Source: a virus. Taken from it: a DNA stretch of 64,000 nucleotides. The first letter of the stretch is position 1, and each line of letters starts with the position of its first letter. Positions 12,601-57,295 of the stretch are shown here, piece after piece. Position numbers and translations under genes: made by a program. Where the stretch lies: the IMG/VR virus record IMGVR_UViG_3300005518_000002, positions 17,860 through 81,859 of that record; one strand, written 5' to 3'. The notes beneath the pieces are model-generated. The model did no database searches. It saw only the letters and a list, made by a program, of their open reading frames with translations, and was not told where the DNA came from.

Positions 12601-12698
12601 CTGTCACTCGCCATCGTCACCCGGCGCCCGTGGGCCTTCTGGACGTGCTGGCCACGGCGGTGCATGGCCACTCGGTGATCAGAGCCGTGCATGACCAT
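9657..12698 (-). CDS. Fusion: 2H phosphoesterase + MuF-like minor head domain + capsid maturation protease
   Basis: LHCTLFF and WVAHICAAY (two Hx[T/C] motifs); DKNTCKPC...CQGGSRCRG MuF-like Cys motif; EGIETGDGR, GVSVD, RAATVVDIPAF, VSGDWR protease region. Start may be 12692 or 12614. Confidence 0.75.
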   Translation of the reverse strand: MVMHGSDHRVAMHRRGQHVQKAHGRRVTMASDSSHLSGCMIALMPTVADAKRLAIKGGEKAEDLHCTLFFVGDDAELWTPEQRQELISSMTMLAQELDGPVSAKVFGVSHWNAGGESPSWVWSVGDAEPEPAVQLGGSLSFAHILATEALEYMHNHPTLPAQHTPWVAHICAAYTGDLTLAKELEKRLGEVTFDRIRISFADEDTDIPLTAALTAAAAPLRRNLTPLEEASRWDFAAHQKDWTEAVADALSSWQEVKLSWRREIRQQITSAGGISPQISVDTTAAAETLYHRMLLLAQQAGEAQQREAEEQGVTVPEWTLDSLTAALSGSDILRGVASMRASIMGNRLVQSARSRLAALFGSGRDSEELADDVDGALDELSDASDEEAIGAAMTGAQNTGRMAVLMVAPLGQYVASEALDKNTCKPCISIDGMEFVSRQDAMEAYPSGGSGYAKCQGGSRCRGTLLAVWGGLDDSVTADGGIMSATEALVEEGTMPWHTVQGHSGCPSSEPWAVVKDSDGSVAGCHASEQEANDQLAALYAAESSGEMTTEADLGAKPSEGTKKDKRIKENKYGEEAGVVVTEAEQELTSGPVELEGKTAPWRGPLTVEGIETGDGREFDTDSLTWADLPLPLRWNKEDSHGGEPHTVAVNVGNITKIWREGSLVMGEGLLDLGDEDGQRVHDKIKGQFLRGVSVDVDSIKDADMELVWPDMPDGEGGEEADLFEMLFASPEKIVFHRGRIRAATVVDIPAFAEAYIALLDEEGAVLAGGERIGALRASRTPRPVFTGPVLRASGSGWAPPVTWFQDPALSVPTGITVDNEGRVYGHAALWGTCHIGQAGVCVTPPHEEDHPYFMTGEIVCADDSRVSVGQITVGTGHAPISYNAHAASDHYDNTGAAVADVVVGNDAHGIWVAGAVRPGADSSRVHELRGAGQVSGDWRRIGGQLRLVGLLAVNTPGFPVPKLRTSVKAGSQFALVASGIPHLSNQVREDQLDKWAYARVMDIMRRRVHGEG

Positions 12699-14484
12699 TC
12701 CTCACCGGCAGCAGATTGGTGCTGATCATCTTGCTGGTGTCCTGGTAGGGAGAGGGGCCGTCGATCTTCAGCAGGCCGAAGGCGTCCAGATGGCAGACGT
12801 AGGCACCGCTGGTACCGGGTACGGCCTGTGGCGCTGCCGTTCTGATCGCGTAGGTGAACGGACAGCTGTAGACGTGTCCGGTGCACACCTCGGGATGCAG
12901 GAGGTCCCATCTGCTGCCCGCGGTGAACTTGAGCACGTGCTGTGTGGCTGCCTGCCGGGACATGCGCTCCGTGCGTGCGGCGGCCGCCTTGGGAACCGCC
13001 TCCTCGGGCGGCGACGGAGGACCGTGCGCCTCGGGCGGGCCGCCCTCCTCCCCCGGCGGTGGCTTGCCGGTACCGGAGGGCGGCTGGGACGCCTTCGGTG
13101 CGGTGAGCAGGGGATCGAGCACCTTCTTACCGGTGAGCGCGTCCAGCGCAGCAGGCCCGGCGCCCGGCACCGTACGAACCATGATCTTGAGGCCGATGGC
13201 CTCCAGCTCCTCTTCGGTCGGAGCGTCGTCCTCGTCGAACCCGACTTCCCGGCGCAGCGCTGCACCGGACAGCTCCATGCGGTCGTACGCGTCCTTGGCG
13301 TTCTCGCTGCGGTCGGGGCGCAGGGCCAGTTCGCTCATGTCGTACCAGACGACCCACTGCCCGGCGTCAGTGGCGCCGCTGGCAGCCAGTCGCGGCTGGA
13401 GGTACCCCCGGGTGAGGGAGTCGCAGATGAGCTCCGCCACGGGAGCGATGTGCGTCTTGAGCGCCCCTTCCTCCAGCTGCCAGGCACCCCAGTGATTGAC
13501 GTCGCCCATGCCGAGCAGGATCTCCGCGGGCATGTCGAGTTTGGTCGCCAGACGCTTGATCGCGGAATCCCGCTTCTCAATGATCTTCTCGTCGGCCTGG
13601 AGTGTGAAGTCGACGTGGCGGAACTCCTTCAGCACCTCGGCCGGTCCCGTGATCGGAATGGGGATGACGGCGGAGGCAGAGCCGGGGTTCTTGATCGCCT
13701 CAGAAGCGATCTCGATGAACTCCAGCATGAAGGGGTTCGGTTCGTCCAGGAACTCCTCGCGCACCGGGAAGTCGATTTCACTGGGTACGAGGACGACTCC
13801 CGCAGACGCCAGTCGGCTCAGGTAGTCCGCCTGAATCTTCCGGTTGACCAGCTCCAGCTCCCGCAGAACCTCCCGGGCGCTGCGCGCCGGGGAATCGGCC
13901 AGGTGGTAGAACCGGTCGTCCGGCCGCCAGATGCGCACGACCAGGCTGTCCGGACCGAGCTTGCGCCAGTCGCGGCCTGCGTTGACGGACTCCTCGTCCA
14001 TGACGAAGAACGTGCCGGACTCGGCCCTGATCTCATCGACGGAGCGGATCATCCACCTCTCCGTACCGTCGGTGGTCTCACCCACCAGGTAGCCCTCACC
14101 GGGGACGGAGAGGTGGACAGTGGCCCGCTTCAGGATCTGGGACTGCCCGCCCACGCCTCCGCCGAGCATCATCATCAGCTCGGCCGCGGGGCCCTTCATC
14201 TCGATCTCCGGCTCATCTGCGTCCGGCTGGAGCTTCGCCGCGCGCAGCCGGACACGGGAGAGCATGTTGGAGAGCCACCACACCCCGAAGTTGAACTCCC
14301 CCACGGTGGTGTAGTACCGCCACAGCTCGTCCTGCCACGACTCGGTATGGCGCAGAAGCTGATCGCGGGCACCCTTGGCCTGTGTGGCTGCGGCGGTGAG
14401 GGCGGGAGGCGCAGAAGCCGTCAGGGCGGCCGGAACGGAATCCTTGGGCGGGGTGCGCTGGAGCCGGGGGATCCTCCATACCAT
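12679..14484 (-). CDS. Portal protein
   Basis: WQDELWRYY..VGE, RIWRP, ADSPARSA, SRLASAG, NHWGAWQ, WYD..L..RPDRS motifs. Confidence 0.85.
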   Translation of the reverse strand: MVWRIPRLQRTPPKDSVPAALTASAPPALTAAATQAKGARDQLLRHTESWQDELWRYYTTVGEFNFGVWWLSNMLSRVRLRAAKLQPDADEPEIEMKGPAAELMMMLGGGVGGQSQILKRATVHLSVPGEGYLVGETTDGTERWMIRSVDEIRAESGTFFVMDEESVNAGRDWRKLGPDSLVVRIWRPDDRFYHLADSPARSAREVLRELELVNRKIQADYLSRLASAGVVLVPSEIDFPVREEFLDEPNPFMLEFIEIASEAIKNPGSASAVIPIPITGPAEVLKEFRHVDFTLQADEKIIEKRDSAIKRLATKLDMPAEILLGMGDVNHWGAWQLEEGALKTHIAPVAELICDSLTRGYLQPRLAASGATDAGQWVVWYDMSELALRPDRSENAKDAYDRMELSGAALRREVGFDEDDAPTEEELEAIGLKIMVRTVPGAGPAALDALTGKKVLDPLLTAPKASQPPSGTGKPPPGEEGGPPEAHGPPSPPEEAVPKAAAARTERMSRQAATQHVLKFTAGSRWDLLHPEVCTGHVYSCPFTYAIRTAAPQAVPGTSGAYVCHLDAFGLLKIDGPSPYQDTSKMISTNLLPVRNGHARL

Positions 14485-17450: not shown

Positions 17451-18839
17451 TCAGCCAATTTTGCGGCTGACTGCTGCGAGCCCCTTACCGCCGGATTTGT
17501 TGCCGGTCATCATCAGCTTGACGATCCGCTGATGCCACGCTGGCCACACCATCGCGTCCAGCCGGTCGGGAGACCAGTCGAGCTCTTCGTGCCATGTACA
17601 CAGCTGGTCCTCAAGCTCAGGATGCACCCCGACGAGGTGCCAGCGGTTCTGCTCGGTCAGCGCGCTGACGGGGGAAGCACGGACCTTCTTCCCCCGGCTG
17701 GCTGTGACCTTGCGCACCGGGATGCTGATCCCCATGGAGTCCGCGGCCGCGCGGATCGTGCCGATCGCCATGTCGCCCCCGTAGTTGATCTCTACGCAGA
17801 TGTCGTCCGCCTCGTAGTCGACGGCAGCCTGGACAGCGCGCCGCCCCCATCCGTCAGGGGTGAGGTGACAGGTACGGTCGGCCAGCACGAAGCCGTGTGC
17901 CAGGGGAGTGCGCAGCCGGGCATCCTCCGTCTCCCGGGTGATGAGGGACTTGCCGACAACGACGATGCCCTGCTCCCCGGCTCCGCCCGACGGGTCCACT
18001 CCGACGCTGCGCCGGACGTTGGGGGTCATGAGATCGAGATTCGGTATGCGGCTGGAGTCGAGACCGGCGTGGGTCCACAGTGCGTTCTCGTCCTGGTCGA
18101 GGACTTCGGCATGCAGCTCCTGACGGCCCAGCTGCGTACCGCCGTACTCGTCCTCCAGCTCCTGGCGGAGCTCCCCGTCCAGGTGGGGGTTGTCGTACAT
18201 GGAGGCACGGGAGACGGAGACGTTGCGGAACTCCCCGCGGTCCAGCTTTTTGATCAGCGGACGTGGCTTCGGCGTGGTCGATGCAACCCAGTGGGGCCGC
18301 TGTCCGACGCGGAGACCGAAACGCATGTGAGGCCAGCACGCGTCGAGGTAGCGCCAGGCTGCAAGCTCTTCTGCCCAGACCACACAACGGTTACCACCGG
18401 AACGAAGACGTTCAACATCCTCCGGAGTATGCGCACCAAACAGCTTCGCCTCGGATCCATTGGGCCAGCGTACGGACAGACCACCGGCACCGGAGAACAT
18501 GCGTGCGTCGGGGTTGTGCGCCTTGAGGCCCGAAGGTCCGTTGACGCAGCTCGTCGCCGCGTCGCCGAGAGTGGGAGCGATGATGCCGATCCAGTGCGGG
18601 GTGTGACCGGGCAGGCACGGCGGACCGTTGACATGATCGGTGATGTACTTGGCGCAGGCGTCCGTCTTACCGGCGCCGCGCCCCGCGAGCAGCAGCCAGC
18701 CCCGCCAGTCGCCCGGGGGAGGAATCTGGTGAGGCAGGGGCTGCCACTTGACGATGGACATGGCACGCAGATGCATGGCCAGCCGGTCGCTGGCCCCGCG
18801 TGCGATGCTGCCCTTCGCGCTCATGTGATCAGTGTGCAT
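17451..18839 (-). CDS. terL: Terminase large subunit
   Basis: Walker A AGRGAGKT, Walker B VWAEE, STTPKP, GVDPS and SPDRLDAMVW nuclease motifs. Confidence 0.92.
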   Translation of the reverse strand: MHTDHMSAKGSIARGASDRLAMHLRAMSIVKWQPLPHQIPPPGDWRGWLLLAGRGAGKTDACAKYITDHVNGPPCLPGHTPHWIGIIAPTLGDAATSCVNGPSGLKAHNPDARMFSGAGGLSVRWPNGSEAKLFGAHTPEDVERLRSGGNRCVVWAEELAAWRYLDACWPHMRFGLRVGQRPHWVASTTPKPRPLIKKLDRGEFRNVSVSRASMYDNPHLDGELRQELEDEYGGTQLGRQELHAEVLDQDENALWTHAGLDSSRIPNLDLMTPNVRRSVGVDPSGGAGEQGIVVVGKSLITRETEDARLRTPLAHGFVLADRTCHLTPDGWGRRAVQAAVDYEADDICVEINYGGDMAIGTIRAAADSMGISIPVRKVTASRGKKVRASPVSALTEQNRWHLVGVHPELEDQLCTWHEELDWSPDRLDAMVWPAWHQRIVKLMMTGNKSGGKGLAAVSRKIG

Positions 18840-45288: not shown

Positions 45289-45540
45289 ATGACCACCACC
45301 AAGCGACCCAGGGGACGACCCCGTCCCATCGAGACGATCGAGCGGGACGAGAAGATCCTCAAGCTGCTCCAGCAGAGCGGATCGTTCACCCGCAATCAGA
45401 TCGCCGAAGCCCTGGGCCTGGACACCACCATCACCTACCTCTCCCTGGACCGGCTGCGCCGCCAGGGACGCGTCCGCAAGTGCGCGGGCACCGGCTCGAA
45501 CACCCTGTGGACGAGCGAGGCGAATGCCCCGTGCCCCTGA
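45289..45540 (+). CDS. Winged-HTH regulator with AT-hook-like RPRGRPR
   Basis: ILKLLQQSGSFTRNQIAEALGL...SLDRLRRQGRV. Confidence 0.7.
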   Translation: MTTTKRPRGRPRPIETIERDEKILKLLQQSGSFTRNQIAEALGLDTTITYLSLDRLRRQGRVRKCAGTGSNTLWTSEANAPCP

Positions 45541-45742
45541 TCACCGGACCTGCGGACGAGCAGGAAGAGGCGCTGGGACCGCGGGAGATCTGCGAGCTGG
45601 GAGAGATCTGCGTAAAGATGGCCCGGCAGCTGCGAGAAACGAGCGAGGCAGCGGCAGCCATCTTCAGATCGCTCCCCGCCGCGGGAGCCCTGCTGACGTC
45701 CCCGGACGCCATGCGCTGGACCCCCGGGGAAGGAGTTGCGCT

Positions 45743-46372
45743 GTGAGCGGTGACCGGCTCACCGTGGCTGTGTGCATCCCGACCATCGACGGCCGGGAGC
45801 GCATGCTGGCCAACGCCATGCGCACGGTAAGGATCCAGCGCCGCAAGCCCGACCAGATCCTGATCGAGCGGGACCGGGAAAGGACGGGCGCAGCAGCCAC
45901 ACGCAACCGGCTGCTGGCCCGGGTGGAGACCGACGTGATCGCCTGGCTCGACGATGATGACCTTCTGGAGCCGAACCACCTGATCGCCAACCTCCGGGTG
46001 CTCAAGGAGCGGCCGGAGGTCACACTCGTCTACCCCCGGCCGCGCATGGTCGGCGGGAAGGACCCCACGGCAGTGACTTACCAGGGACGGTTCCCGACCC
46101 CTCCCTGGGGCCTGCGCTGGTGCCCGGAGTTCGACAAGCACCTGAGGATGCGCGGCTCCTTCATCCCCATGACGCACCTCGTGCGCACGCAGGCGGTGCG
46201 CGACGCCGGAGGATTCCCGCCCGGTGAAGTCCTGCCGGACGGCCGGTACCGGGGTGAGGACGAGGCGTACCTGATCAGGCTTCTCGATCACGGCGCGGTG
46301 TTCGAGCACCTGGACGCGAAGACCTGGAAGTGGGTCGTGCACACCCGGCAAACCGCCGGACGGGGTGTATAA
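45743..46372 (+). CDS. GT2 glycosyltransferase
   Basis: VAVCIPT, GAAATRNR, WLDDDD, GEDEAY. Confidence 0.85.
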   Translation: MSGDRLTVAVCIPTIDGRERMLANAMRTVRIQRRKPDQILIERDRERTGAAATRNRLLARVETDVIAWLDDDDLLEPNHLIANLRVLKERPEVTLVYPRPRMVGGKDPTAVTYQGRFPTPPWGLRWCPEFDKHLRMRGSFIPMTHLVRTQAVRDAGGFPPGEVLPDGRYRGEDEAYLIRLLDHGAVFEHLDAKTWKWVVHTRQTAGRGV

Positions 46373-46625: not shown

Positions 46626-47027
46626 ATGGGAAACAACGGACGGACGTACCGGGGTGTGCCGGTTCCGAGCCGTCTGCGCGAGATCGAAGAGAAGGGCGAC
46701 CAGGATCATGATTTTTCCTACATGGGGTGGAAAGATGGCGTAGATGCAGCTTGGGCGGCGGGCATCCGCAATGAACCCGACCCTGGGCAAGGAGAACCGA
46801 CCATGACAGACCTACTCGAAGACAGCACCGATCCGCCCGAGAAGCGGGACAGTGAGGTACCGGCCGGGGCGGAAGTCGAAGCACTGTGCGCGGTGTTCAA
46901 CGAGAACGGGACCAGGGCCCGGGAGATCGTCAGGAGCATGCCCCGGCGGGACCGGGCGATCTTCACCTTCTGGCTGCTGGAGCTCACCAACATCATCGAC
47001 GAGATCCAGCTGGGTGACCGCTTGTAG
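46626..47027 (+). CDS. Hypothetical protein
   Basis: 133 aa, GAGGGAG RBS. Confidence 0.55.
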   Translation: MGNNGRTYRGVPVPSRLREIEEKGDQDHDFSYMGWKDGVDAAWAAGIRNEPDPGQGEPTMTDLLEDSTDPPEKRDSEVPAGAEVEALCAVFNENGTRAREIVRSMPRRDRAIFTFWLLELTNIIDEIQLGDRL

Positions 47028-47290
47028 GACAGGACACCCGGACAAGACAGGACAGGACACCAGGACACGGTGTCCTGTCCTGTCTTTGTCTTGTCTGCCC
47101 CCCTTGTCCAATGCGCCCCCGGGTGCGCCCGTACACCTGTCCGTGCGCCGTCCCGGGACAGGACATCCCGGCAGGACGCTCCTGGACAGGACACGGTGTG
47201 CCAGTCCACCTGGACAAATATGCCGCTGGACATGTCCAGTCAACGTCCTGGACAACCCCGGGTAATACAGCACTGGACAAGCGCGCTGGC
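47027..47290. repeat. GGACA/TGTCC repeat array with 18-bp perfect inverted repeat; candidate clt
   Basis: Dense GGACA copies; AAGACAGGACAGGACACC (47044-47061) / GGTGTCCTGTCCTGTCTT (47069-47086). Confidence 0.75.
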
Positions 47291-47344
47291 TGCCCCGTAC
47301 ATTGACTGGACCGATTAAAGAAAATCGACCAGGGAGGACAGGCC

Positions 47345-48445
47345 ATGCGAACCAGGACAGAGCGCAGGACACGGATGGTGTCCAGGACGGTGGGGGACAA
47401 GACACACCCCGTCTCCCAGGAGTACGAGGTCCAGGTCCCGGTTGTCCCGACAGACTGGGACGCCGTCGCGCTGTCCACTGTCCGGGCCGCGACCACCCTG
47501 TCCGTCCTGGGCGCCATGGCCTGGAGCACGGTGTCCATCGGGGACCTGCTGTCCATGGTGGCCCCGAGCTGGGTGGCGTACACCGTCGCCGGGGTCTTCG
47601 ACCTGGCCTGGATCGTCTGCATGATCCTTGAATGGCTGGGCCGCTACGACCCCGCCCGCGCACGCATTCCCCGCCGGGCTGGCTGGTCGGCCCTGGGCAT
47701 CAGCATGGTCCTCATCGCAGGTCACGGCTATGCATACGGCGTGCTCAACGGCCACGGACGGAGCTTCCTGGCTGTGGGCATCGGAGGTGCGCTGGTCTCC
47801 GCCATCGCGAAGAGCATGTGGTCGGTGGTCATGAACCACACGGCCGTGAAGCTCTCCGCGGAACACGAGGAATGGCTGGCGGCGGAGCGTGCAGAGACCG
47901 GCACGGAGCTGGCCCTGACGGCTGAGCGCCGCAGGCTCGCCCGGACACGGGACTCCATTGAAGCCGAGCGCCGCGCACTGGGGCAGGACACAACGCCGGA
48001 GCCGGACGTCCAGGACATCCGGCCGGAGCCGGACGGGACACTGTCCGCCTCCCTGGACACGGACAAGGAAAAGGCTGTCCGGGCACTCGCCAAGGCCATG
48101 GACATCCCCGTGGAGCTGTTCGGCCTGGACAGGACAGCCGGACAGGACACGGACAGCCGGACAGGACACGGACAGCCGGACAGGACACGGACAGCCGGAC
48201 AGGACGGCCGGACAGGACGGCCGGACAGGACACGGACAGTCGTCCCCCTGGACAGGACACGCAGTGTCTCGTCCTATGTCCTGTCCCTCCTGTCCGAAGC
48301 GCCGGACATGGACGGGACAGCGGTCAGGACAGCGGTCCGGCTCGAATTCCCGGGCGCTTCGGAAGACAGCATCGCCAAGGCGATCACCCGCACACGTCTG
48401 AAGATCAGGAACACCGAGAAGAGGGATGGAGAGAACCATGGCTGA
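47345..48445 (+). CDS. SpdB-like plasmid spread protein (4 TM + coiled coil + repeat linker + C-terminal HTH-like)
   Basis: AWSTVSIGDLL, AGVFDLAWIVC..LEWL.RYDP.RA..PRRAGW; linker built from GGACA repeats. Confidence 0.7.
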   Translation: MRTRTERRTRMVSRTVGDKTHPVSQEYEVQVPVVPTDWDAVALSTVRAATTLSVLGAMAWSTVSIGDLLSMVAPSWVAYTVAGVFDLAWIVCMILEWLGRYDPARARIPRRAGWSALGISMVLIAGHGYAYGVLNGHGRSFLAVGIGGALVSAIAKSMWSVVMNHTAVKLSAEHEEWLAAERAETGTELALTAERRRLARTRDSIEAERRALGQDTTPEPDVQDIRPEPDGTLSASLDTDKEKAVRALAKAMDIPVELFGLDRTAGQDTDSRTGHGQPDRTRTAGQDGRTGRPDRTRTVVPLDRTRSVSSYVLSLLSEAPDMDGTAVRTAVRLEFPGASEDSIAKAITRTRLKIRNTEKRDGENHG

Positions 48446-49043
48446 GCACAACGGCTGGCCGTCTGCGCCGGACTACCCGGCAGGCATGCAGCGTCCGGCG
48501 AACCGGACCACGCTGACCGCGGACGAAGCCACAGCACGGGGCACGGACGGATTCGGGCACCCTCTGGGACCCGACTCCACGTTCCCCAACGGCACCGGAG
48601 AGATCTTCCCCCCGGGCACCCGGGGCACGATGTCCTCGGGCAAGGGGGGAAAGCACAGCAACCTGCTGGATCTGATCAAGACCCTGGAGGACGGCGATCT
48701 GGGTGACCAGGTCGAGATGCACGCCTATGTCGAGGACGCACGCGCACTGTTCATGCGCATCGCAGTGATCATCGCACTGGCGTCCGGCGGGATGAAGGAA
48801 GACGCCAAGCGCAAGGCCCGGGAGTCCGCGGACGGCCGCATGACCCTCGGGGACAAGATCAAGCTGGCTGCCGCGCTGCGGAAGATCTCCCGCAAGTTCG
48901 GCGCGGCCGCCGACCACGCCGCTGACGCGGCCGCCGACATGGCAGCCTCCTGGCGGATCATGGAAAGCTGCCTGGACGATCTGGAGCAGGGAGCGGCAAA
49001 GCCGCAGGCCAAGCGCGGTTTCAACATCACTCGCGGTCGTTAG
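48438..49043 (+). CDS. TraA-like plasmid transfer protein
   Basis: Helical RKISRKFGAAADHAADAAADM region; located between spdB-like and traB. Confidence 0.55.
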   Translation: MAEHNGWPSAPDYPAGMQRPANRTTLTADEATARGTDGFGHPLGPDSTFPNGTGEIFPPGTRGTMSSGKGGKHSNLLDLIKTLEDGDLGDQVEMHAYVEDARALFMRIAVIIALASGGMKEDAKRKARESADGRMTLGDKIKLAAALRKISRKFGAAADHAADAAADMAASWRIMESCLDDLEQGAAKPQAKRGFNITRGR

Positions 49044-49046
49044 GGG

Positions 49047-51020
49047 GTGGCCAGGATGAGCATCAACTTCGGTGCACGATTCGGCTGGCTGATGGCTGAG
49101 AAAACGGCTCCCTTTTCGGCGCCGGTACTGCTCAGCCTGGCTGCTATGCCGCTTGCCGTTCTCGCCCACTGGGGCTGGGGGGACGATCCGGTCTGGATCG
49201 CTGTCCTGGCTGTGGTCTCCACGATCCTGACCGCCTCCACGTACTGGACCTGGGGCCGCCGCAGCCGGGAGAGCCAGCGGGTGGCCACGGTGTTCACCGC
49301 CCTGGTACTGGGCTGGATCACCTTCGCGGCCGCGTCCAGCCCCTTCAACTCCGGCATGGTCAGTGCCTGGCTGCTCGGAACCGTCGCTCTCGGCATCCTG
49401 TGGGGTATCCGGCACGCCGGTCTCAAGCCCTCCAGCGAGAACGACAAGCAGGTCAGCGAGCCCGACCCGCTGGGCGGTCGTGTGGGCGTGCTGAAGGGAG
49501 CCCGGACAAAGAAGATCAAGGGGGACGACGAAGCGGTGGAGGCACGGGTGCAGATGCCCCGGGGCGGAGCCACCGTGGCGGATGTCCAGGCAGCCCGGGA
49601 CACCATCGCTTCGGCCGTCAGCATGGGGACGGACCAGGTCACCGTCCGGCCGGTCAAGGGACGTGCGGACCAGGTTGACCTGGCCTTCACCCAGCCCGTG
49701 GACATGGACAAAGTCCTGGCCTGGACAGGTCCGTCCCACCCCGGGAAGTCCATCGCGGATGCCCCGATCCGTCTGGGCTACCGCATGAACGGCAGCGAGA
49801 TCGCCTGGTGGCTGGTCGGGTCGGGAGACCCCGCCAACCCCCGGGTGCTGTCCCACACGCTGTGCACCGGCATGACCGGCTCCGGGAAGACGGAGACGAT
49901 CTGCACGGCGATCATCGAGATGCGCTCCCGCACGGACATCGTGCCGATCGTGGGAGACCCCGCCAAGTTCGCGCAGAGCTTCGGGGACATCGCGGACTGC
50001 CTGGAGATCGCGGCCAAGACCCCGGCCGAGGTCAAAAAGCTGATCAAGAACCTGCCGGACGCCGTGGTCTACCGTGCCGGGCTGCTGGGCACCCTGACCA
50101 GGGCAAACGGCCAGGTCGGGTACAAGGAGTGGATCCCGGAGTGCTACACCCTGCACGGGATCCCGGCAGTGTTCATCGACATCGAGGAAGCGGCCGACGT
50201 CGCCGATCTGATCGCTGATGAGCTGGACGAAGCAGTGCGCAAGCTCCGCTCCATAGGCATCCACCTCTGCATCTCGATGCAGACCGCACCGCACGACAAC
50301 ATGGCGCGCAAGACCCGCGGGCAGTTCGGCCAGTCGCTGGCCCACGGGTGCCAGGAAGCCCAGGATGCCAAGTACTCCCTGAACTCGAACACTCTCGACG
50401 CAGGGGCGGACCCCACCAAGTGGGGCAACGAATCCCCCGGCTCGCTGTATGCGGAGCTGGTCGGCACGGACAAGCTGCACTGGTCCGTGGACGGCAAGGT
50501 GCTCGCCACGACGTACGAGCAGAAGCGCACGTCGATCAGGGACACGAAGCGGTACTGGGCACACCTGGACGCCGGGACGAAGCAGATCCTCGGCCGGGGG
50601 ATCATCCTCCAGGACGAGCAGTTCCTGGCCGCGCTGCCGAGCGTTCCGGCCGACAGGGAAGTACCCGAAGAGGATGTGAGGCGGGACCTACACGCGGTCC
50701 CGACCGACGAAGGAGTGGTGGATGTGACACAGGAACTTCAGCCTCCGGTAGGTCCCCGGGTGGCCTTCGGGTCGCCCGAGCGTGACCGGATGAGCACCGA
50801 GGATGCACGTGCGCTGATCGAGGGAAGGATCGACGATCTGGAAGCCGGGGGCCGCGATTCGGTGGGCTTCGGAGACCTCGAAGATCTCGCCGCAGTGACC
50901 GGCCGCCAGCGCACCTGGATCTACCAGGAGCTGACACGGCTGGTAAAGGAGGGACGCCTGGTGGAGGGAACGAAGCCCCCGTACGCCATCAAGAGGCGTT
51001 CCGAGACAGCTGTCAGCTGA
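49047..51020 (+). CDS. traB: TraB-type FtsK/SpoIIIE conjugative DNA translocase
   Basis: N-terminal TMs, WTGPSHPGKSIADAPIRLG, Walker A GMTGSGKT, IDIEEA, RSIGIHLCISMQ, AGADPTKWGN, C-terminal wHTH (RQRTWIYQELTRL..EGRL). Confidence 0.85.
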   Translation: MARMSINFGARFGWLMAEKTAPFSAPVLLSLAAMPLAVLAHWGWGDDPVWIAVLAVVSTILTASTYWTWGRRSRESQRVATVFTALVLGWITFAAASSPFNSGMVSAWLLGTVALGILWGIRHAGLKPSSENDKQVSEPDPLGGRVGVLKGARTKKIKGDDEAVEARVQMPRGGATVADVQAARDTIASAVSMGTDQVTVRPVKGRADQVDLAFTQPVDMDKVLAWTGPSHPGKSIADAPIRLGYRMNGSEIAWWLVGSGDPANPRVLSHTLCTGMTGSGKTETICTAIIEMRSRTDIVPIVGDPAKFAQSFGDIADCLEIAAKTPAEVKKLIKNLPDAVVYRAGLLGTLTRANGQVGYKEWIPECYTLHGIPAVFIDIEEAADVADLIADELDEAVRKLRSIGIHLCISMQTAPHDNMARKTRGQFGQSLAHGCQEAQDAKYSLNSNTLDAGADPTKWGNESPGSLYAELVGTDKLHWSVDGKVLATTYEQKRTSIRDTKRYWAHLDAGTKQILGRGIILQDEQFLAALPSVPADREVPEEDVRRDLHAVPTDEGVVDVTQELQPPVGPRVAFGSPERDRMSTEDARALIEGRIDDLEAGGRDSVGFGDLEDLAAVTGRQRTWIYQELTRLVKEGRLVEGTKPPYAIKRRSETAVS

Positions 51021-51125
51021 CAGTGTCAGACAGTGTCAGAAAGGCTGTCAGAAGCCGTGTCAAAGGCTCCTGACAGCCCCTCTGGCCTAAGACTCTCCCC
51101 GCCTGACACGATCACGTGTCAGGAA
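51010..51125. repeat. TGTCAG/CTGACA repeat cluster at 3' end of traB
   Basis: CTGTCAGCTGACAGTGTCAGACAGTGTCAGAAAGGCTGTCAGAAGCCGTGTCAAAGGCTCCTGACAG. Confidence 0.75.
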
Positions 51126-51155
51126 CACTGAACACAGAGAAACGGAAAGATCATC

Positions 51156-51365
51156 ATGACTCGTATCCTTGCCCGCTGGACGGCGGAGATCGTCGTCTTT
51201 GTGGGTGCCCTCATAGAGATCTACTTGTTCGCCAGCCTGCTCCCCGGGGACAGTGTCGATCTCCCTGTCGGCGGCACCCTGGTGACCATGCTCCTGATCG
51301 GAGCAGTCACCGCCGCTGTCGCCATTCCGCTCTGGTCGCACGGCCGCAAGCGCGACCGTGCCTAG
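51156..51365 (+). CDS. Small two-TM protein (Spd-like)
   Basis: 69 aa, hydrophobic, directly after traB. Confidence 0.55.
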   Translation: MTRILARWTAEIVVFVGALIEIYLFASLLPGDSVDLPVGGTLVTMLLIGAVTAAVAIPLWSHGRKRDRA

Positions 51366-51469
51366 GCATCACCACGGGCGCCGGGGACACCGTCGCCGTC
51401 ACAGCGGGAACGGAGACCTGATCTTCTGGGTCGGCCTGTTCCTCACCATCGTCTGGATCGCGGACCACT

Positions 51470-51862
51470 ATGGAAAATGAGATCGAGCGGCGGCAGCGCC
51501 TCGGGGAACTCACCGAGTACCTGCGGACGCAGCCGCTCACGAACACAGACCAGGGACAGCACGTCCACATCCACTACCACCAGGCGCCCGCCAGTACAGC
51601 GCCGGTCGACCAGAACCCGGGACAGAGCGTCCTGGACAAGTACACCCCGTACTTCATCCTGCTCCTGGCGGGGTGCGTGATCCTCGCGATCGTCGCGGTG
51701 ATCGCCGTCATCCTCCTGCCCATGGTCGTGACCATGCTGATCGCCGTTGCGGTCTGCCTGGGCGCGGTCGCCGTGCTGGCGCTGGCCGTCAGCGGCTCGC
51801 TGCGCAATATGCGGCTCCAGAAAATGGATGAAACCCTCCTGAAGAAAGTGATCAAAAAGTGA
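51470..51862 (+). CDS. SpdD-like membrane protein
   Basis: QHVHIHYHQAP followed by ~45 hydrophobic residues. Confidence 0.55.
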   Translation: MENEIERRQRLGELTEYLRTQPLTNTDQGQHVHIHYHQAPASTAPVDQNPGQSVLDKYTPYFILLLAGCVILAIVAVIAVILLPMVVTMLIAVAVCLGAVAVLALAVSGSLRNMRLQKMDETLLKKVIKK

Positions 51863-52545
51863 GCAGAGACCCGATGCTGGTGATCGTCCCCACCCGGGGA
51901 CGGCCGGAGAACATCGTCCGGCTGGAGGCCGCACTCACCGAGACCGGCACGATCGAGGCCGACTTCCTGTACGTGGTCGATCATGACGATCCGGCGCTGG
52001 ACGACTATCTCTCGCTCGGCCTGCGCCGGATCACGGTCATGCAGCGCCGGGCGCGTCTCGGCCGGACCCTGAACCATGTCTCCCAGCTCTACCGGGAGGC
52101 GTACGACGTGATCGGTTTCATGGGGGACGACCACTGCCCGCGGACCCCGGAATGGGACAAGCGGATCATGGACTCACTTCTGGAGGGCGCACCGCGGGTC
52201 GTCTACGGCAATGACCTCCTCCAGGGGGCGAACCTGCCGACGGCCGTCTTCATGCACAGCAGGATCATCAAGGAGCTCGGCTACATGGTTCCGGCGACCA
52301 TGGTCCACCTGTACCTGGACAACTTCTGGAAGGAGCTGGGCGCCGGACTGGACGGCCTGGTCTACCGGCCGGACGTGGTCATCGAGCACATCCACCCGGC
52401 TGCGGGCAAGGCCCCGATGGACGACGGGTACCGTGAGGCGAACTCGTCGGAGCAGGACCGGGCGGACCGGGAAGCCTGGCTGGCGTACCAGCAGAACTCT
52501 CTGCCCTACGCGGTCAAGAGGATCCGGGAGGCGTACGACAAGTGA
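51859..52545 (+). CDS. GT2-like glycosyltransferase
   Basis: LVIVPTRGRP, VVDHDD, FMGDDH, HLYLDN. Confidence 0.8.
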   Translation: MSRDPMLVIVPTRGRPENIVRLEAALTETGTIEADFLYVVDHDDPALDDYLSLGLRRITVMQRRARLGRTLNHVSQLYREAYDVIGFMGDDHCPRTPEWDKRIMDSLLEGAPRVVYGNDLLQGANLPTAVFMHSRIIKELGYMVPATMVHLYLDNFWKELGAGLDGLVYRPDVVIEHIHPAAGKAPMDDGYREANSSEQDRADREAWLAYQQNSLPYAVKRIREAYDK

Positions 52546-53138
52546 CCTTGAAATCAGGCGTAACAGCCGTCGTGTCTGCACACACTCCCCGTGTGCAGAC
52601 ACGCTTGCATTCCGCACTGGACAGTGTGCTGATGCAGACCCGTCCGGTGGACGCAATCAGCGTCTCCGTCGATCATCACCACGAAGGTGCCGCTGCCACG
52701 AAGAACCGGGCGCTGGCGGCCGTGGGCACCGAGTGGTCGGCCGTGCTGGATTCGGACGATCTCTGGTTCCCCGAGCACGTCGCACTCCTGCTCATGCATG
52801 CCGAGCAGACCGGAGCCGACATGGTCTACCCGTGGTTCGAGGTGGAGAACGGGTGGGATCCGTTCCCGATGTTCGAGGGCCAGCCGTTCGACCCGAACGC
52901 GCTCAACGAGCAGAACTACATCCCGACCACGGTGCTCGTCAGGACAGAGCTGTTCCGGAGCACCGGGGGCTTCCAGCCCCTGGGACCGGAGGAGAATCCC
53001 TGCGACGACTGGGGGGCCTGGCACGCGCTGCGGAACGCGGGAGCGAAGATCGAGCACCTGAACCGGCGGACCTGGAAATGGGTCTGGCACGATACGGACG
53101 GGGACCGCAACACCTCGGGGAGGGGGAACGCGTGGTGA
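52542..53138 (+). CDS. GT2 glycosyltransferase
   Basis: ALDSVLMQT, GAAATKNRAL, LDSDD, CDDW. Confidence 0.85.
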   Translation: MTLKSGVTAVVSAHTPRVQTRLHSALDSVLMQTRPVDAISVSVDHHHEGAAATKNRALAAVGTEWSAVLDSDDLWFPEHVALLLMHAEQTGADMVYPWFEVENGWDPFPMFEGQPFDPNALNEQNYIPTTVLVRTELFRSTGGFQPLGPEENPCDDWGAWHALRNAGAKIEHLNRRTWKWVWHDTDGDRNTSGRGNAW

Positions 53139-53287
53139 GGAAGAAGGCCACCCGCGACGGACCGGAGAAGTGCATCCATGGTCACCGGTACGACGAGAAG
53201 AACACGTACCGGCACAAGGGGAAGAAGTTCTGCCGGAAGTGCCATGCAGCGGGCCAGCGTGCGCGCCGGAGGAGGGGGGCCGCGTAA
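53132..53287 (+). CDS. Small Zn-binding basic protein
   Basis: CIHGHRYDEKNTY....CRKC. Confidence 0.6.
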   Translation: MVRKKATRDGPEKCIHGHRYDEKNTYRHKGKKFCRKCHAAGQRARRRRGAA

Positions 53288-53598
53288 TGATCAAAACCCT
53301 GCTGGTCACGGACAACGTGATCCGCCCGCAGCAGTGCGAGCTGTACCGGGGGCACACGTGTGCTGTGGTCAACAAGCACCACATCTGTCCGGAGTCCTGG
53401 TGGCACGCGGCCGGAGTCCTGGTGGACACTCCGATGATCGTGCTGTGCCCGAACTGTCACTACAACACGCACGCAGCCATCGACGGCATGATCCGGGAGC
53501 GGGACCTGCACTGTCTGCCGCCCCGCTGCATCAAGCTGGCGGAGCAGGCGTTCACGCTCGCTCTTGCCGCCGGTCTCACTCCCGCCCTTACTCTCTGA
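53287..53598 (+). CDS. HNH endonuclease
   Basis: KHHICP...VLCPNCHYNTH. Confidence 0.7.
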   Translation: MIKTLLVTDNVIRPQQCELYRGHTCAVVNKHHICPESWWHAAGVLVDTPMIVLCPNCHYNTHAAIDGMIRERDLHCLPPRCIKLAEQAFTLALAAGLTPALTL

Positions 53599-53607
53599 GG
53601 ACTGATC

Positions 53608-54519
53608 ATGAAGGCACTCGTCACCGGCAACAAAGGGTTCCTCGGCCGTCACTTCGAGGCTGAACTCGTCCGGCGCGGCTACGACGTGACCGGCCTGGAC
53701 ATCAAGACCACGAAGAGCCAGGACTGCCGGAGGTTCTTCCAGAGCTCGGAATCTCTGAAGAAGGAGTTCGATCTGGTGGTTCACGCCGCTGCTGTGATCA
53801 AGGGGCGGGAGACGATCGACGGGGCTCCGCTGGCCACCGCGGTGAACCTCGGACTGGACGCGGACATGTTCCGCTGGGCTTCGCTGGCCCGTCCGGGACG
53901 GGTGCTCTACCTCTCCAGCTCCGCCGCGTACCCCGTGTGGGCACAGGACGGGGAGCCCTCCTCCCCCTCCACGCAGGGTGGTCTGGGAGAGTTCTCGGTA
54001 GACGTCACCCGGGACGGAGGAGTCTCCCGGCCGGACCAGGTCTACGGCTGGAGCAAGGTCGTCGGAGAGGTGCTGACGCACGAGCTGCGCCGGACCGGCG
54101 TACCGGTCAGCGTGGTCCGGCCGTTCAGCGGATACGGCGCGGACCAGGACGACACGTACCCCTTCCCGGCCTTCGTCCGCCGGGCACTGGAGCGCCAGGA
54201 CCCCTTCGAGGTCTGGTGCGGCTCGTGCGTCAGGGACTTCATCCATGTCAGCGATGTGGTGGCGGGTGCGCTGGCCGTGGCTGAGGACGGCACCGAGGAT
54301 CCGGTCAACCTGTGCACCGGACGCGGGACCAGCTTCGACGACCTGGCAGAAATGATCACCGATGCCGTCGGATACTCCCCGGAGATCCTGGAACGGGCCG
54401 ACAAGCCGACCGGCGTCCGGCACCGTGTCGGAAGCACGCTGCGCATGTCCAAGATCTATGAGCCGGTGGTCACGCTGGAAGCCGGGATCGCGCTGGCGCT
54501 GGAGAAGTCGGCGGACTGA
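53608..54519 (+). CDS. NAD-dependent epimerase/dehydratase
   Basis: GNKGFLG, LSSSAAY, YGWSK, RPFSGYG, RDFIHVSD. Confidence 0.88.
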   Translation: MKALVTGNKGFLGRHFEAELVRRGYDVTGLDIKTTKSQDCRRFFQSSESLKKEFDLVVHAAAVIKGRETIDGAPLATAVNLGLDADMFRWASLARPGRVLYLSSSAAYPVWAQDGEPSSPSTQGGLGEFSVDVTRDGGVSRPDQVYGWSKVVGEVLTHELRRTGVPVSVVRPFSGYGADQDDTYPFPAFVRRALERQDPFEVWCGSCVRDFIHVSDVVAGALAVAEDGTEDPVNLCTGRGTSFDDLAEMITDAVGYSPEILERADKPTGVRHRVGSTLRMSKIYEPVVTLEAGIALALEKSAD

Positions 54520-54586
54520 GCGTGTTGTGAGCCGCTTGGCGCAGGGTGTACTGTTTAACTAAACAACTGAAACAGACCAGGGACCA

Positions 54587-55288
54587 GTGATCATCATGCG
54601 CACCGTCACCAGCACCCAGACCCTCCGCACCGTCATCGAGCGGGCCATCGCCAAGCAGCACCCGGTGACGATCTCGTACGTCACGGCCAGCGGCCGGAAT
54701 GTTGTCCGCACCGTGGAGCCCTACCGGATCAGCGTGTCGGCCGCTGGTGACGTCCTGGTCAAGACGATGGACCGCGAGTCGGGCGACTACCGCAGGTTCC
54801 GGCTCGACCGGATCACGCACTACACCGTGCACCGCACCTACTTCTCGATCAAGAACCCGACCCACCTGACGGAGGTCGTCCTGTCCGTCGACAGCGGCGT
54901 TCCGGCCACGGCAGCCGAAAAGATGACCATGATCCGCGAAGCGGTCCTGTTCACGATCAAGCACAGCAACGGCAACCCTGCCGACGTCGACATCGACGGA
55001 ACGGTCGGACTCCTTGCAGCGGAGACCGGGGAGATCACACCGAGCCGTATCTGGGAGGCAATCCGCATGAACAAGACCCCCGAGTACCGCACCAGCAACG
55101 GTGTGGCCATCCGCGCCGGTCTGCGGGTGCTCGACTACGACCGTAAGACCGGCAGCGTCGGCCACGCGCAGTTCACCCGCGGCGGCAGCTGTGACCCCGG
55201 TGGCGAGTACTTCAATGGCTGGTTCGAGGTCGTCCGGGACGACGGCAGCACGGCCCTGTTCAACGGTGAGCGCCTGCGGGCGCTCTGA
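54587..55288 (+). CDS. WYL-domain protein lacking N-terminal HTH
   Basis: AIAKQHPVTISY..SG....RTVEPYRI...YRRFRLDRI. Confidence 0.8.
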   Translation: MIIMRTVTSTQTLRTVIERAIAKQHPVTISYVTASGRNVVRTVEPYRISVSAAGDVLVKTMDRESGDYRRFRLDRITHYTVHRTYFSIKNPTHLTEVVLSVDSGVPATAAEKMTMIREAVLFTIKHSNGNPADVDIDGTVGLLAAETGEITPSRIWEAIRMNKTPEYRTSNGVAIRAGLRVLDYDRKTGSVGHAQFTRGGSCDPGGEYFNGWFEVVRDDGSTALFNGERLRAL

Positions 55289-55345
55289 CCCACCATCCCG
55301 GCCGGGAGGCAGACGCCTCCCGGCTCCGTCTATGAAAGGAAGATC

Positions 55346-57295
55346 ATGGCCAGGGACAAGTACCGGCACCGGACCGAGGACCGGGGGCGCGGCATCGTCG
55401 CCGTCTTCTCGGAGGGTCCGAGCAGCGAGGTGAACGCGGTCGACCGCGAAGGCCGGTCCTTCGCCAAGCGGGAGCTGACGTTCGAGCCGGGGCTGACCGG
55501 CAGGCCGGTTTCGGGCGGCGGCCGGTTCTACGACCATGGCGCCATGTACGAGGCGCAGCAGATCTTCGTCACGAAGAAGCTCACCCCGAGGGAGGACTGA
55601 TCATGGCACGTAAAACCGACTACCCCACAGGCAATCCGAACGGCATGTCGTTCATCTGCAACAGGTGGGTGTTCACCGGTCCGCAGGGCTACCGCGTCCA
55701 GAAGCAGGGCGACAAGTGGAGCGTCGTCTCGTACACCGCGAACGACACGCGTCCGGTGTCCAGCGGTGCCCGGATGACCGAGGACGACGCGCACGCGCTG
55801 GCAGCCGAGCTGGCCGGAGGTCACTGACCATGCCGATTCGCGATGTCCTCCAGGCAGCCCTCCGTCGGCTCAGCTGGTCTCAGCACGAGATCGACACGGC
55901 GCTGACCGAGCTCCAGGAGGACGTACTGACGGACCCCACGCTGTCCGACCACACGGCCTACCGGGAACTGGCGGACGCAGTGGTGGAGCAGATCGGCTGG
56001 CTCTCCGGGGACGGGGACAGCTGGGACGGCGACGACGACGAACTGACCATCCTGAAGAACTGGCTCACGGTCTCCGGGAAGTGGCTGCCGGAGATGTACG
56101 CACACCTGACTGCGGAGAAGATCAGGTTCTGCTGCAACTGCCTCGCGGGAGCGGGCTCGTGCGATGCGGCGGCCGACCGGATCGACCCGTGGCTCTCCAG
56201 CACGGAGCACGAGAGCTGGGGAACTCTGGTCCGGAAGTCGGACGGCACCGAAGTGCCCTGGAAAATCATGAACGCCGTGGAAGTCCTGAGGAACAAGGAG
56301 AAGTGACCATGAAGAAGACGATCACCATCCGGCTCACGCTGGACAACATCGAGACCGCACTGAAGCCGGGCGACGTGTTCGCCGACGACCCCGAGTTCGG
56401 GGCTGTCCGGTCCGCCCGCAAGCACGCCAACGGCACGGACGCCATGGTGTACACCGACAAGGGCAGCCGGGACTCCCTCGGCCTGCCGCAGACCGTGCGC
56501 GTGATCCGGGAGACCTGATCATGGAGAAGAAGCTGTACCTCGTGGGGGTTTCGCAGGGGGCTCCGGTGAGCGTCCTCGGCCCGTACCAGGAGAGCGAGCT
56601 CCGTCCGCTCATGACCGGCCGCAGGCAGCTGGAGGACGCGGGAGCCGACGAAGGCGTCTACCGGGCGCGGGCGCTCAGCGCCGAGGAAGCGCTGGCGCAG
56701 GTCGAGCGGGACCTGAGGGAAGGGAACTGATCATGGGACAGCGGGAACGGCTGGAAGCGCTGCGCAAGGACGCGAATGATCCGACACTTGAGGCCGGAGA
56801 CCTCGTGTTCTGCCGGGGCATCTACGCCAAGGTTCGGATGATCAGGGAACACAAGCCGGGTACACACTCGTGGTCACCGATCAAGAACGAAATGACGGCC
56901 CGGGAGATCGTGACAGACCTCGGCTCACGGTGGTTCGGACGCTGAGAGACCGGTCGGGTGCAGGGGCTGACGTCCCTGCACCCCCTCAGGCCGTCAGCCT
57001 GGAACAAGATCACAGACCAGCACGAGGAGAGATCATGGAAAAGGGATACACCGTCGTCCAGGTCACGGACCTGGCCCCCGGGGACCGGATCGCGCAGGTG
57101 TTCCCCGTCAGGGAACGCGGCATCGTCCGCAAGGGGGAGCGGGTGGTGAAGATCCTGGACGTCCAGCCGGAGACGGTTGAGCGCTGGGGCGAGAAGCTTC
57201 CGGTCTGCCGCGTCCTCGGTATCGACCCTGATCAGGGGGACGGGGTCGTGAAGTGGCTGGCCGTGCCGTCCCGCCGGTACGTCGTCGTCCGCTGA
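55346..57295 (+). CDS. Small early genes (55346-55600, 55603-55827, 55830-56306, 56309-56518, 56521-56730, 56733-56945, 57035-57295)
   Basis: Tightly packed ORFs with GGAG RBS and TGA-NN-ATG junctions. Confidence 0.65.

Follow-up and report, generated by a model that had tools for sequence, protein, structure and literature searches.

A conserved plasmid-type DNA-transfer cassette in an uncultured Streptomyces-type phage, with a predicted role in virion-independent spread

In an uncultured tailed soil phage of the Streptomyces type, a native cassette for DNA transfer, of the kind used by plasmids, is predicted to provide the phage genome with an extra, virion-independent means of spread (a reading to which we give a probability of roughly 0.6). 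In Streptomyces plasmids, the TraB pump, its helpers and a set of docking repeats push double-stranded DNA between hyphae. Since the phage has a TraB, a TraA, a SpdB-type protein and candidate docking repeats, it may also spread without virus particles. The module is an old, conserved, syntenic and near-universal gene set of a phage lineage with genomes of 75–99 kb.

The phage record (IMG/VR, IMGVR_UViG_3300005518_000002; here G000) is a complete, circularly assembled genome of 81,859 bp (~82 kb), and the window analyzed is a 64,000 nt stretch of it, to which all coordinates refer. A 120 bp overlap of the ends was considered as a terminal repeat, rejected, and taken to reflect circular assembly. 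The module shares the record with genes for TerL, portal, MuF/protease, capsid, tape measure and lysins, a complete virion module, as the sequence-only reading had claimed for terminase, portal, capsid and tail. The same reading spoke of a phage or phage-plasmid, and only the first term can be kept for G000. Profile searches of the whole genome with the Phage_integrase, Resolvase and CbiA/ParA models found none of these; neither the maintenance genes of a phage-plasmid (ParAB, dimer resolution) nor a plasmid state is seen. ParA and a recombinase are present in the larger relatives (89–99 kb), to which the term phage-plasmid is therefore limited, and are absent from G000 and about half of the complete relatives; TraB is kept in both groups. 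Searches of 50,697 deposited phage genomes (megablast, tblastn), a set from which close records may be missing, gave no match to the module or to TraB, nor was a cultured phage of this lineage found among them, the best capsid identity being ~33%.

Five ORFs on one strand (47345–51862), all with high third-position GC, make up the module in the order spdB-type, traA, traB, clt-like array and two small membrane genes (Table 1). Homology and hydropathy agree with the open frames in this, as first proposed. The ORF just upstream is 78% identical in contig L009, which elsewhere is 97–100% identical to G000, and in runs X4 and X5 a 186 bp segment of this region is swapped for 42 letters. On the plasmids compared, traB is accompanied by a GntR-type TraR/KorA repressor gene, but none was seen adjoining the phage module.

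Table 1. Features of the transfer module and its upstream flank (window coordinates).
Feature	Position	Strand	Remarks
133-aa ORF, no family match	46626..47027	+	Just 5' of the module; strain-variable
First GGACA array	47027..47100		Long inverted repeat, 18-bp perfect arms 47044-47061 and 47069-47086, then a T-rich tail
CTGGACA/GGACAGGACA repeats and promoter-like site	47150..47303	+	5' of the spdB-like gene
SpdB-family membrane protein, 366 aa	47345..48445	+	phrog_35187, E 8.5e-54; hydrophobic segments
Second GGACA array	48127..48290		Inside the spdB-like ORF; 19-bp unit GGACACGGACAGCCGGACA, ~4 copies and variants
TraA homologue, 205 aa	48426..49043	+	Overlaps spdB end; stops 3 bp before traB
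TraB homologue, 657 aa	49047..51020	+	Membrane helices, beta domain, FtsK-type ATPase, winged helix
clt-like array	51007..51125		8 CTGACA/TGTCAG copies; starts inside the last traB codons
69-aa protein, two hydrophobic helices	51156..51365	+	Spd-like from position and hydropathy only
130-aa protein, long hydrophobic stretch ~58-108	51470..51862	+	Spd-like by position only

The module was found in the same neighborhood in 21 of 22 complete relatives retrieved by capsid alone, and its synteny extends over 23 viral contigs and four Streptomyces genomes. The genes keep the same order between the same glycosyltransferase genes even where the TraB proteins of the relatives are only 43–71% identical. 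A second IMG/VR contig (L009) and a 33 kb contig from an independent metagenome run also join the module to phage genes, which contradicts an assembly chimera.

The TraB homologue has four membrane helices (residues 21–126), Walker A (275–282) and Walker B (378–381) motifs, and a C-terminal winged helix (584–648). It matches the NCBIfam model plasmid_TraB (NF041214) at E 1.8e-109 over model positions 3–632 of 639, and its score of 367 bits, below the 800-bit equivalog cut-off, marks it as a diverged homologue rather than an equivalog. Its identity to the TraB proteins of pJV1, pSN22, pWTY27, pCQ3 and others is 24–30% over more than 90% of the length, and alignment with a PGAP-named TraB runs end to end (28% identity, E 1e-48), including the membrane region and winged helix. 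Pfam gave only sub-threshold matches (FtsK_SpoIIIE, 13.5 bits) and also missed the S. africanus homologue, and a sequence search of the PDB returned no significant match. An AlphaFold model shows the four membrane helices, the motor and the winged helix, with the FtsK motor as the best fold match (Foldseek, E 2e-14 to 6t8o/2iut). In a quick maximum-likelihood tree of 29 rows, in which long outgroup branches leave the deepest nodes unsure, the phage proteins form a deep, monophyletic clade (support 99) whose sister group is the clade of plasmid TraBs, chromosomal FtsK lying outside both (support 98). The tree places the protein with conjugative TraB and away from chromosomal FtsK. The GxxGxGKT (Walker A) and DxEE (Walker B) motifs are invariant in the TraB of 31 relatives, and eight of the nine traB SNPs listed for the independent 33 kb contig fall at third codon positions; the motifs of the motor are intact and under purifying selection. 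In phage protein databases the pump family (phrog_24831) is listed as 'unknown function'.

The protein encoded directly upstream of traB scores below threshold against NCBIfam plasmid_TraA (NF041213; E 4.6e-7, 30 bits against a cut-off of 80). Alignment by hhalign of 16 phage TraA-like proteins with five plasmid TraAs gave a probability of 97.4% (E 9.7e-12), and the pairing of traA with traB follows the arrangement in pJV1, pSN22, pWTY27 and pCQ3, which together identify the 205 aa product, at the level of sequence, as a true homologue of plasmid TraA. Because both TraB and TraA score under the NCBI equivalog cut-offs, they are diverged and could have changed role.

Repeat arrays had been noticed at the module, and counting bears this out for the GGACA and CTGACA motifs alike. 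Eight of the 28 CTGACA copies of the window lie within 112 bp (51011–51122), where ~0.07 would be expected (Poisson ~1e-14). Five direct repeats at 10–13 bp spacing are followed by inverted copies and a 9 bp palindrome (CCTGACACG/CGTGTCAGG). Arrays of CTGACA/GTGACA type occur at the same place after traB in pWTY27, pRL1, pCQ3, an S. canus plasmid and a Thermobispora plasmid, while pJV1 and pSN22 have CCGCACA at the equivalent place; those of pWTY27 and pJV1 are experimentally defined clt loci (PMC3583192). Among the phage relatives the array motif shifts (CTGATCA, GTGATCA, CGTGACA), and the start of TraB helix 3 changes with it. The CTGACA array, located where plasmid clt sites sit, is accordingly a candidate clt. 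The motif of pSVH1 TraB (GACCCGGA) is not enriched, with two copies, both elsewhere. Of the two genes that follow, the first is matched by weak homologues in the equivalent position of L010, L016 and L017, and the second has homologues (28–44% identity) 3' of traB in many relatives. Both had been called Spd-like; hydropathy supports membrane proteins, and the more specific label derives from position, with hydropathy added for the first.

The SpdB-like protein consists of an N-terminal membrane half, a low-complexity linker encoded by repeats and a small C-terminal domain. Homologues of residues 1–215 (42–57% identity) carry Pfam PF27080 SpdB_N in precomputed annotation, and some homologues have a C-terminal HTH. 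The protein itself gave no match to SpdB_N or PF10935 DUF2637 in the Pfam version used, and hhalign against the DUF2637 protein of pWTY27 gave a probability of 42%; the gene occupies the position of the DUF2637/SpdB-type gene of that plasmid. Some SpdB homologues bear the name 'Sec31'.

Around this gene lie the GGACA repeats, with 10 of the 14 window copies of GGACAGGACA within 47027–48290. The first array is terminator-like and/or a putative protein-binding site, and a similar array is present at the same place in most relatives. The promoter-like site at 47274–47303 (TGGACA-18-TACATT) is a consensus match only. In the second array the copy number is strain-variable, with indels at 48164–48201. 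Both arrays are much denser than the CTGACA array, and they were considered as TraB sites but set aside: the motif remains GGGACA despite differing TraB helix-3 sequences, and is replaced by CGAAAG in relatives with a nearly identical helix.

How the module might work is suggested by the plasmid systems. TraB hexamers in the hyphal membrane would bind the CTGACA repeats of the phage via the C-terminal winged helix and drive the phage genome, double-stranded and unprocessed, into a neighboring hypha or through cross-walls to adjacent compartments, with SpdB, TraA and the small membrane proteins as helpers. The phage would thereby gain a route of spread that needs neither a virion nor a receptor. 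Where a recombinase and ParA are present, as in the larger relatives, the process would be conjugative transfer of a prophage maintained as a plasmid, comparable to pZL12. Conjugation is known to pay in a stable plasmid state, but the lack of ParA, integrase and resolvase gives no support for such a state in G000. There, with neither recombinase nor ParA, the route would more likely be replicating phage DNA moving through the mycelium during infection. A broader proposal, in which TraA, TraB and clt are a core set of an abundant, uncultured 75–99 kb lineage, retained even by members such as G000 that have no lysogeny or partition genes, and the pump of those members drives virion-free spread during lytic infection, with replicating genomes pushed across cross-walls and into touching hyphae, is put forward tentatively. 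One adsorption event could then take over many compartments and bypass receptor-based resistance, and the virus would pass from cell to cell of a multicellular bacterium with no need of virions.

The retention of TraB without ParA and recombinase in G000 and about half of the complete relatives would also suit a module for vertical inheritance. In this reading TraB, much as FtsK/SffA does at sporulation septa, would bind the repeats and pump or clear the extrachromosomal genome of the phage into compartments and spores, and so take over partitioning in a plasmid-like or carrier state where ParAB is lacking. All homologues are on contigs of no more than ~100 kb, never in chromosomes, the element is its own contig in four Streptomyces isolate assemblies, and the fold of TraB is that of FtsK. 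We consider this role improbable, however, as TraB groups with conjugative TraBs and not with chromosomal FtsK, and is retained also in ParA-bearing relatives, while the accompanying TraA and SpdB have plasmid homologues tied to transfer and spread. Still less likely is a pump directed at the host or at DNA other than that of the phage, either mobilizing host chromosomal or plasmid DNA or serving in exclusion or host takeover, and taking no part in moving the phage genome. TraB-dependent mobilization of the chromosome, through clt-like chromosomal sites, is established for plasmids (mentioned in PMC6722414), and PHROGs places FtsK-like phage proteins under 'moron, auxiliary metabolic gene and host takeover', but the matching array lies on the phage genome directly 3' of traB and in relatives varies in step with the TraB helix, and near-universal retention in fixed synteny speaks for a core function of the phage and against a moron. 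That the module is foreign, whether as a chimera of the assembly or as an AICE or plasmid fragment acquired by recent insertion, is scarcely credible: its genes are plasmid and AICE hallmarks and metagenome assemblies break at the GGACA arrays, but no integrase or resolvase was found genome-wide with the models above and no rep gene was seen, the module is not bounded as an independent unit, the GC content of the module is that of its flanks, the phage TraB clade is deep and monophyletic, and the conserved order between glycosyltransferase genes, the 21 of 22 capsid-defined relatives and the two further contigs all uphold the original view that this is not an inserted AICE.

The mycelium of Streptomyces is multicellular, and the main route known for gene exchange in these bacteria is conjugation driven by a single pump protein. 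That a phage lineage has pump, helpers and docking site among its core genes, whether or not plasmid-maintenance genes are also present, suggests that virion-independent genome spread may be common in soil. If so, the boundary between phage, plasmid and conjugative element would be blurred. The usual surveys for phage-plasmids depend on markers of the relaxase/T4SS type and would therefore miss such modules. The annotation of phrog_24831 is useful in itself, given its database entry, and plasmid pS1D4-14.2 puts a relative in a cultured, genetically tractable strain.

Among known systems, chromosomal FtsK/SpoIIIE shares the motor fold and the overall layout, a membrane anchor followed by the motor and a C-terminal winged helix, but the Pfam score of the phage protein is weak and these proteins fall outside the TraB group of the tree. 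A phage carrying a conjugal module already has one studied precedent, of a different lineage: pZL12, or phage ZL12, of Streptomyces sp. 9R-2, reportedly described by Zhong et al. in 2010 (J Bacteriol 192:3747) and said to be a ~90 kb element with virion genes and a conjugal transfer locus around an FtsK-type Tra. It resembles the present phage in combining virion genes with an FtsK-type transfer locus, a precedent for two routes of spread, and in two papers the locus is cited as required for transfer of this plasmid-phage (PMC3583192, PMC4487206). Its relative pSLE1 (NZ_LN831788.1) differs from the phage in having no capsid match, a Tra that matches the TraB model only at E 1e-7, and ParAB with two integrases (PMC4487206), none of which G000 has.

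The same lineage as the phage is represented by pS1D4-14.2 (NZ_CP041606.1), a 98.8 kb circular plasmid of the cultured Streptomyces sp. S1D4-14 (PMC6753273), with a capsid 60%, portal 64% and TraB 48% identical and the same spdB-traA-traB neighborhood. It is 17 kb larger than G000 and, unlike it, carries ParA, a tyrosine recombinase and an XRE regulator, as well as the winged helix of TraB in a separate, stand-alone copy. Its ends give only weak matches of 45–55 bp and hence no long terminal repeats. It was published as a plasmid only (PMC6753273), and no mention of a phage or of TraB was found in the accessible papers.

The transfer region of pWTY27 (NC_013667.2) comprises a DUF2637/SpdB-type gene, a small gene, traA, traB (the product of which is named TraA in its paper) and clt with four TGACACC repeats (PMC3583192). 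It belongs to a 14 kb theta plasmid rather than an 82 kb phage and has a GntR repressor gene upstream, of which none is seen in the phage, while the phage proteins make their own clade and the two extra GGACA arrays around spdB belong to the phage. The gene order (spdB-type, traA, traB, clt) is nevertheless that of the phage module, the TraB proteins are 26% identical over 89% of the length, the array begins before the pump gene ends, in its last codons, and extends about 110–160 bp downstream, and the motif is nearly the same, TGACACC compared with CTGACA(C/G) in the phage.

The transfer module of the window phage, an uncultured Streptomyces-type tailed phage, consists of five co-oriented ORFs with coding-type GC3, all present as the sequence-only reading had proposed (see table). 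The 657-aa TraB-like product aligns along its full length with the NCBIfam model plasmid_TraB (E 1.8e-109; model positions 3-632 of 639), with a score of 367 bits that lies below the equivalog cut-off of 800 bits. A tblastn search of PLSDB with this protein matched 50 plasmids, 45 from Streptomyces, including pJV1, pSN22, pWTY27, pCQ3 and pRL1 (24–30% identity over ~90% of its length), and a PGAP-named TraB aligns pairwise with residues 10-648 (E 1e-48). PHROGs enters the family as of unknown function. The AlphaFold model (31 homologues, mean pLDDT 81), with which hydropathy agrees, has four N-terminal helices and a C-terminal winged domain of three helices, with a beta domain and a RecA-type domain between them; by fold it comes closest to FtsK motor domains (E 2e-14), followed by the coupling protein TcpA and EccC. 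Across the 31 homologues there is no variation in Walker A (G275..K281 T282) or in Walker B (D378, E380, E381).

Positions of features in the window
Feature	Window position	Strand	Remark
Major capsid protein	7660-9468
MuF/protease-type protein	9657-12698
Portal	12679-14484
Large terminase	17451-18839	minus
Glycosyltransferase and epimerase genes	45524-46372; 51859-54519		bracket the module
186-bp segment upstream of module	46628-46815		within 133-aa ORF
GGACA-type arrays	47027-47200; 48127-48290		pentamers
Module ORFs	47345-51862		five, co-oriented
TraB-like, 657 aa	49047-51020		NCBIfam plasmid_TraB
CTGACA array	51011-51122		eight copies

Upstream of traB, the 205-aa protein is, judging by profile comparison, a TraA homologue: its match to the TraA HMM is sub-threshold (E 4.6e-7), and 16 phage copies set against five plasmid TraAs give 97.4% probability (E 9.7e-12). 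The earlier naming of traB and traA is thus upheld by homology; only position marks the two downstream genes, for hydrophobic proteins of 69 and 130 aa, as Spd-like. Residues 1-215 of the 366-aa SpdB-like protein have many Streptomyces homologues (42–57% identity); several of these bear Pfam PF27080 (SpdB_N), and a C-terminal HTH occurs in some. A Pfam search of the window's own protein gave no match, and hhalign of it against the DUF2637 protein of pWTY27 reached 42% probability. At least nine relatives carry, a few hundred bases past the 3' end of traB, a stand-alone copy (130–154 aa) of the C-terminal TraB winged helix (including G022:C1:6762-6959, G013:C1:86649-86843, G006:C1:52042-52239 and G009:C1:78606-78797 of the relatives' genomes), which could be a regulator, or a rival for the repeats of clt, the cis-acting transfer site; the window phage's genome has none.

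The window covers bases 17860-81859 of the 81,859-bp IMG/VR virus record, the ends of which overlap by 120 bp, read as a complete, circularly assembled genome. GC content is 64–71% across the window, with no step at the module. Besides the virion genes in the table, the phage encodes a tape-measure protein, an amidase and a lysin, and it has its own primase-helicase-polymerase, along with a helicase, a RuvC-like protein and an exonuclease. Neither a tyrosine integrase or serine recombinase nor a ParA/CbiA-type ATPase turned up anywhere in the 81,859-bp genome. The module is bracketed by three glycosyltransferase genes (one with a weak TET-associated glycosyltransferase match) and a nucleotide-sugar epimerase gene, likewise in relatives. 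In a 133-aa ORF upstream of it, a 186-bp segment is swapped for 42 other letters in the independent runs X4 and X5, and this ORF has only 78% identity in L009, an otherwise near-identical contig.

A profile scan found TraB homologues on 23 IMG/VR contigs, mostly of 75–99 kb, and, in the genomes of four Streptomyces species, on three contigs of 92–96 kb and one of 54 kb. All keep one gene order (small gene, glycosyltransferase, variable spdB region, traA, traB, small membrane genes, two glycosyltransferases, epimerase), with TraB identities of 43–71%. Independently of TraB, relatives were gathered by capsid alone (75 loci, from a capsid family of >1000 members at E < 1e-30), and the long records were then searched with the TraB profile; of the 22 records with a completeness of at least 90%, 21 have TraB, in the same gene neighbourhood. 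The sole complete relative without a match is G031 (IMGVR_UViG_3300044829_000002, 76,915 bp; capsid 49% identical). A 33-kb contig from the independent rhizosphere run X4 (strain ~1% different) spans window 48176-57000 and beyond, assembly breaks falling at GGACA arrays only; eight of the nine listed traB SNPs lie at third codon positions, counted from 49047. In a maximum likelihood tree, the 16 phage TraBs group together in a single clade (support 99), sister to a clade of eight plasmid TraBs and two chromosomal FtsK-family copies from an S. africanus genome, with chromosomal FtsK outside this pair (support 98); the outgroup branches are long, and the claim is limited to the grouping of phage with plasmid TraBs. 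Because of the kept gene order, the capsid-defined relatives, the X4 contig and the tree, an inserted AICE or assembly chimera is rejected, in agreement with the initial argument against an inserted AICE.

Over the whole window CTGACA shows no excess (28 copies, 38 expected), and the eight copies of the array at the traB end compare with ~0.07 expected there (Poisson ~1e-14). Five direct copies, spaced 10–13 bp, begin within the last traB codons and are followed by inverted copies and a 9-bp palindrome. The DNA 3' of the traB stop codon was examined in eight plasmids, and repeats there include CTGACAC in an S. canus plasmid (8 copies), CTGACA in pRL1 (7) and pCQ3 (6), GTGACAC in a Thermobispora plasmid (6), GGTGTCA (= TGACACC) in pWTY27 (5), and CCGCACA in pSN22 (6) and pJV1 (4, in a locus truncated where the record ends). 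In pWTY27 the array is the clt established by experiment: it takes in 16 bp within the pump gene and a further 159 bp, the pump protein binds it, and transfer requires it; the pJV1 repeats are likewise that plasmid's defined clt (PMC3583192). By this comparison, the phage array shares position and layout, and nearly the motif, with a proven clt. It is kept in phage relatives with drifting motifs (CTGATCA, GTGATCA, CGTGACA, CGTCAG), and the first residues of TraB helix 3 shift together with it, so that the two look like a co-evolving protein-site pair, in a sample that is small and partly related. In 14-kb conjugative pWTY27 (NC_013667.2 10642-12102), a gene PGAP-named 'phage major capsid protein' (L045:4169-4788 in our locus numbering) lies just past clt, ~0.8 kb downstream of the traB stop.

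Two denser GGACA-type arrays flank and enter the spdB-like gene; the first, followed by a promoter-like site, includes a perfect hairpin of 18 bp carrying a T-rich tail. Most relatives have xGGACA arrays at the same two positions (loci L010-L034; as many as 15 copies in 150 bp), a few have quite other motifs (CGAAAG/CGAGAG, GGCTCA, CGTTGC), and copy number differs among natural strains by indels of 6, 8 and 13 bases. The motif does not follow TraB helix 3 across relatives, which suggests that another protein probably reads these arrays, perhaps through the C-terminal domain of SpdB.

In the best reading, TraB would bind the CTGACA array on phage DNA and pump this DNA, double-stranded, between hyphae or hyphal compartments, with help from SpdB, from TraA and from the small membrane proteins; such pumping is how the homologous plasmid systems are said to work (PMC3583192 and work cited there). 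The main rivals are that the module serves segregation or that it acts on host DNA. For transfer of phage DNA by TraB, spread during infection is likelier in the window phage than mating of a stable plasmid.

A cultured Streptomyces strain harbours one relative, the 98.8-kb replicon pS1D4-14.2, which has been published as a circular plasmid (PMC6753273); it is 60% (capsid), 64% (portal) and 48% (TraB) identical to the window phage, and also encodes ParA, an XRE regulator and a tyrosine recombinase. Its 728-aa 'LAGLIDADG homing endonuclease' (78898-81084) aligns with a 364-aa window-phage ORF (genome 6509-7603, minus strand) at residues 1-254 and 627-720 only, and apparently carries an intein-like insertion of ~370 aa absent from the window phage. 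Tyrosine recombinases occur in 9 of the 22 complete relatives, eight of 89–99 kb and one a record of 76.5 kb with its completeness put at 93%; the nine include every one of the three isolate-derived records searched. ParA is clear in five of the 22, with a weak ParA-type match in four more. The lineage divides by gene content, larger genomes (89–99 kb) having a tyrosine recombinase and often ParA and smaller ones (76–88 kb, the window phage among them) mostly lacking both, and TraB is retained in both size groups; the cassette is kept in plasmid-prophage-like members and in members without visible means of lysogeny. Of the proposed 'phage or phage-plasmid', the virion genes hold for the window phage, and ParA and recombinase belong mainly to larger relatives. 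No contig over ~102 kb was found among the best 120 capsid or best 120 TraB matches, and the elements are therefore not integrated prophages.

Our literature searches turned up no paper on this lineage or on its TraB. A phage with a conjugal transfer module is not unprecedented, pZL12 being the precedent. Its relative pSLE1 has no detectable capsid in common with the window phage, has a Tra that is a distant FtsK-type protein (E 1e-7 to the TraB model, against 1.8e-109 here), and carries ParAB and two integrases, whereas the window phage lacks ParA and integrase. On these differences, the window phage represents a second lineage, unrelated to pZL12 and pSLE1, that uses an orthodox pJV1/pWTY27-type TraA-TraB-clt set.
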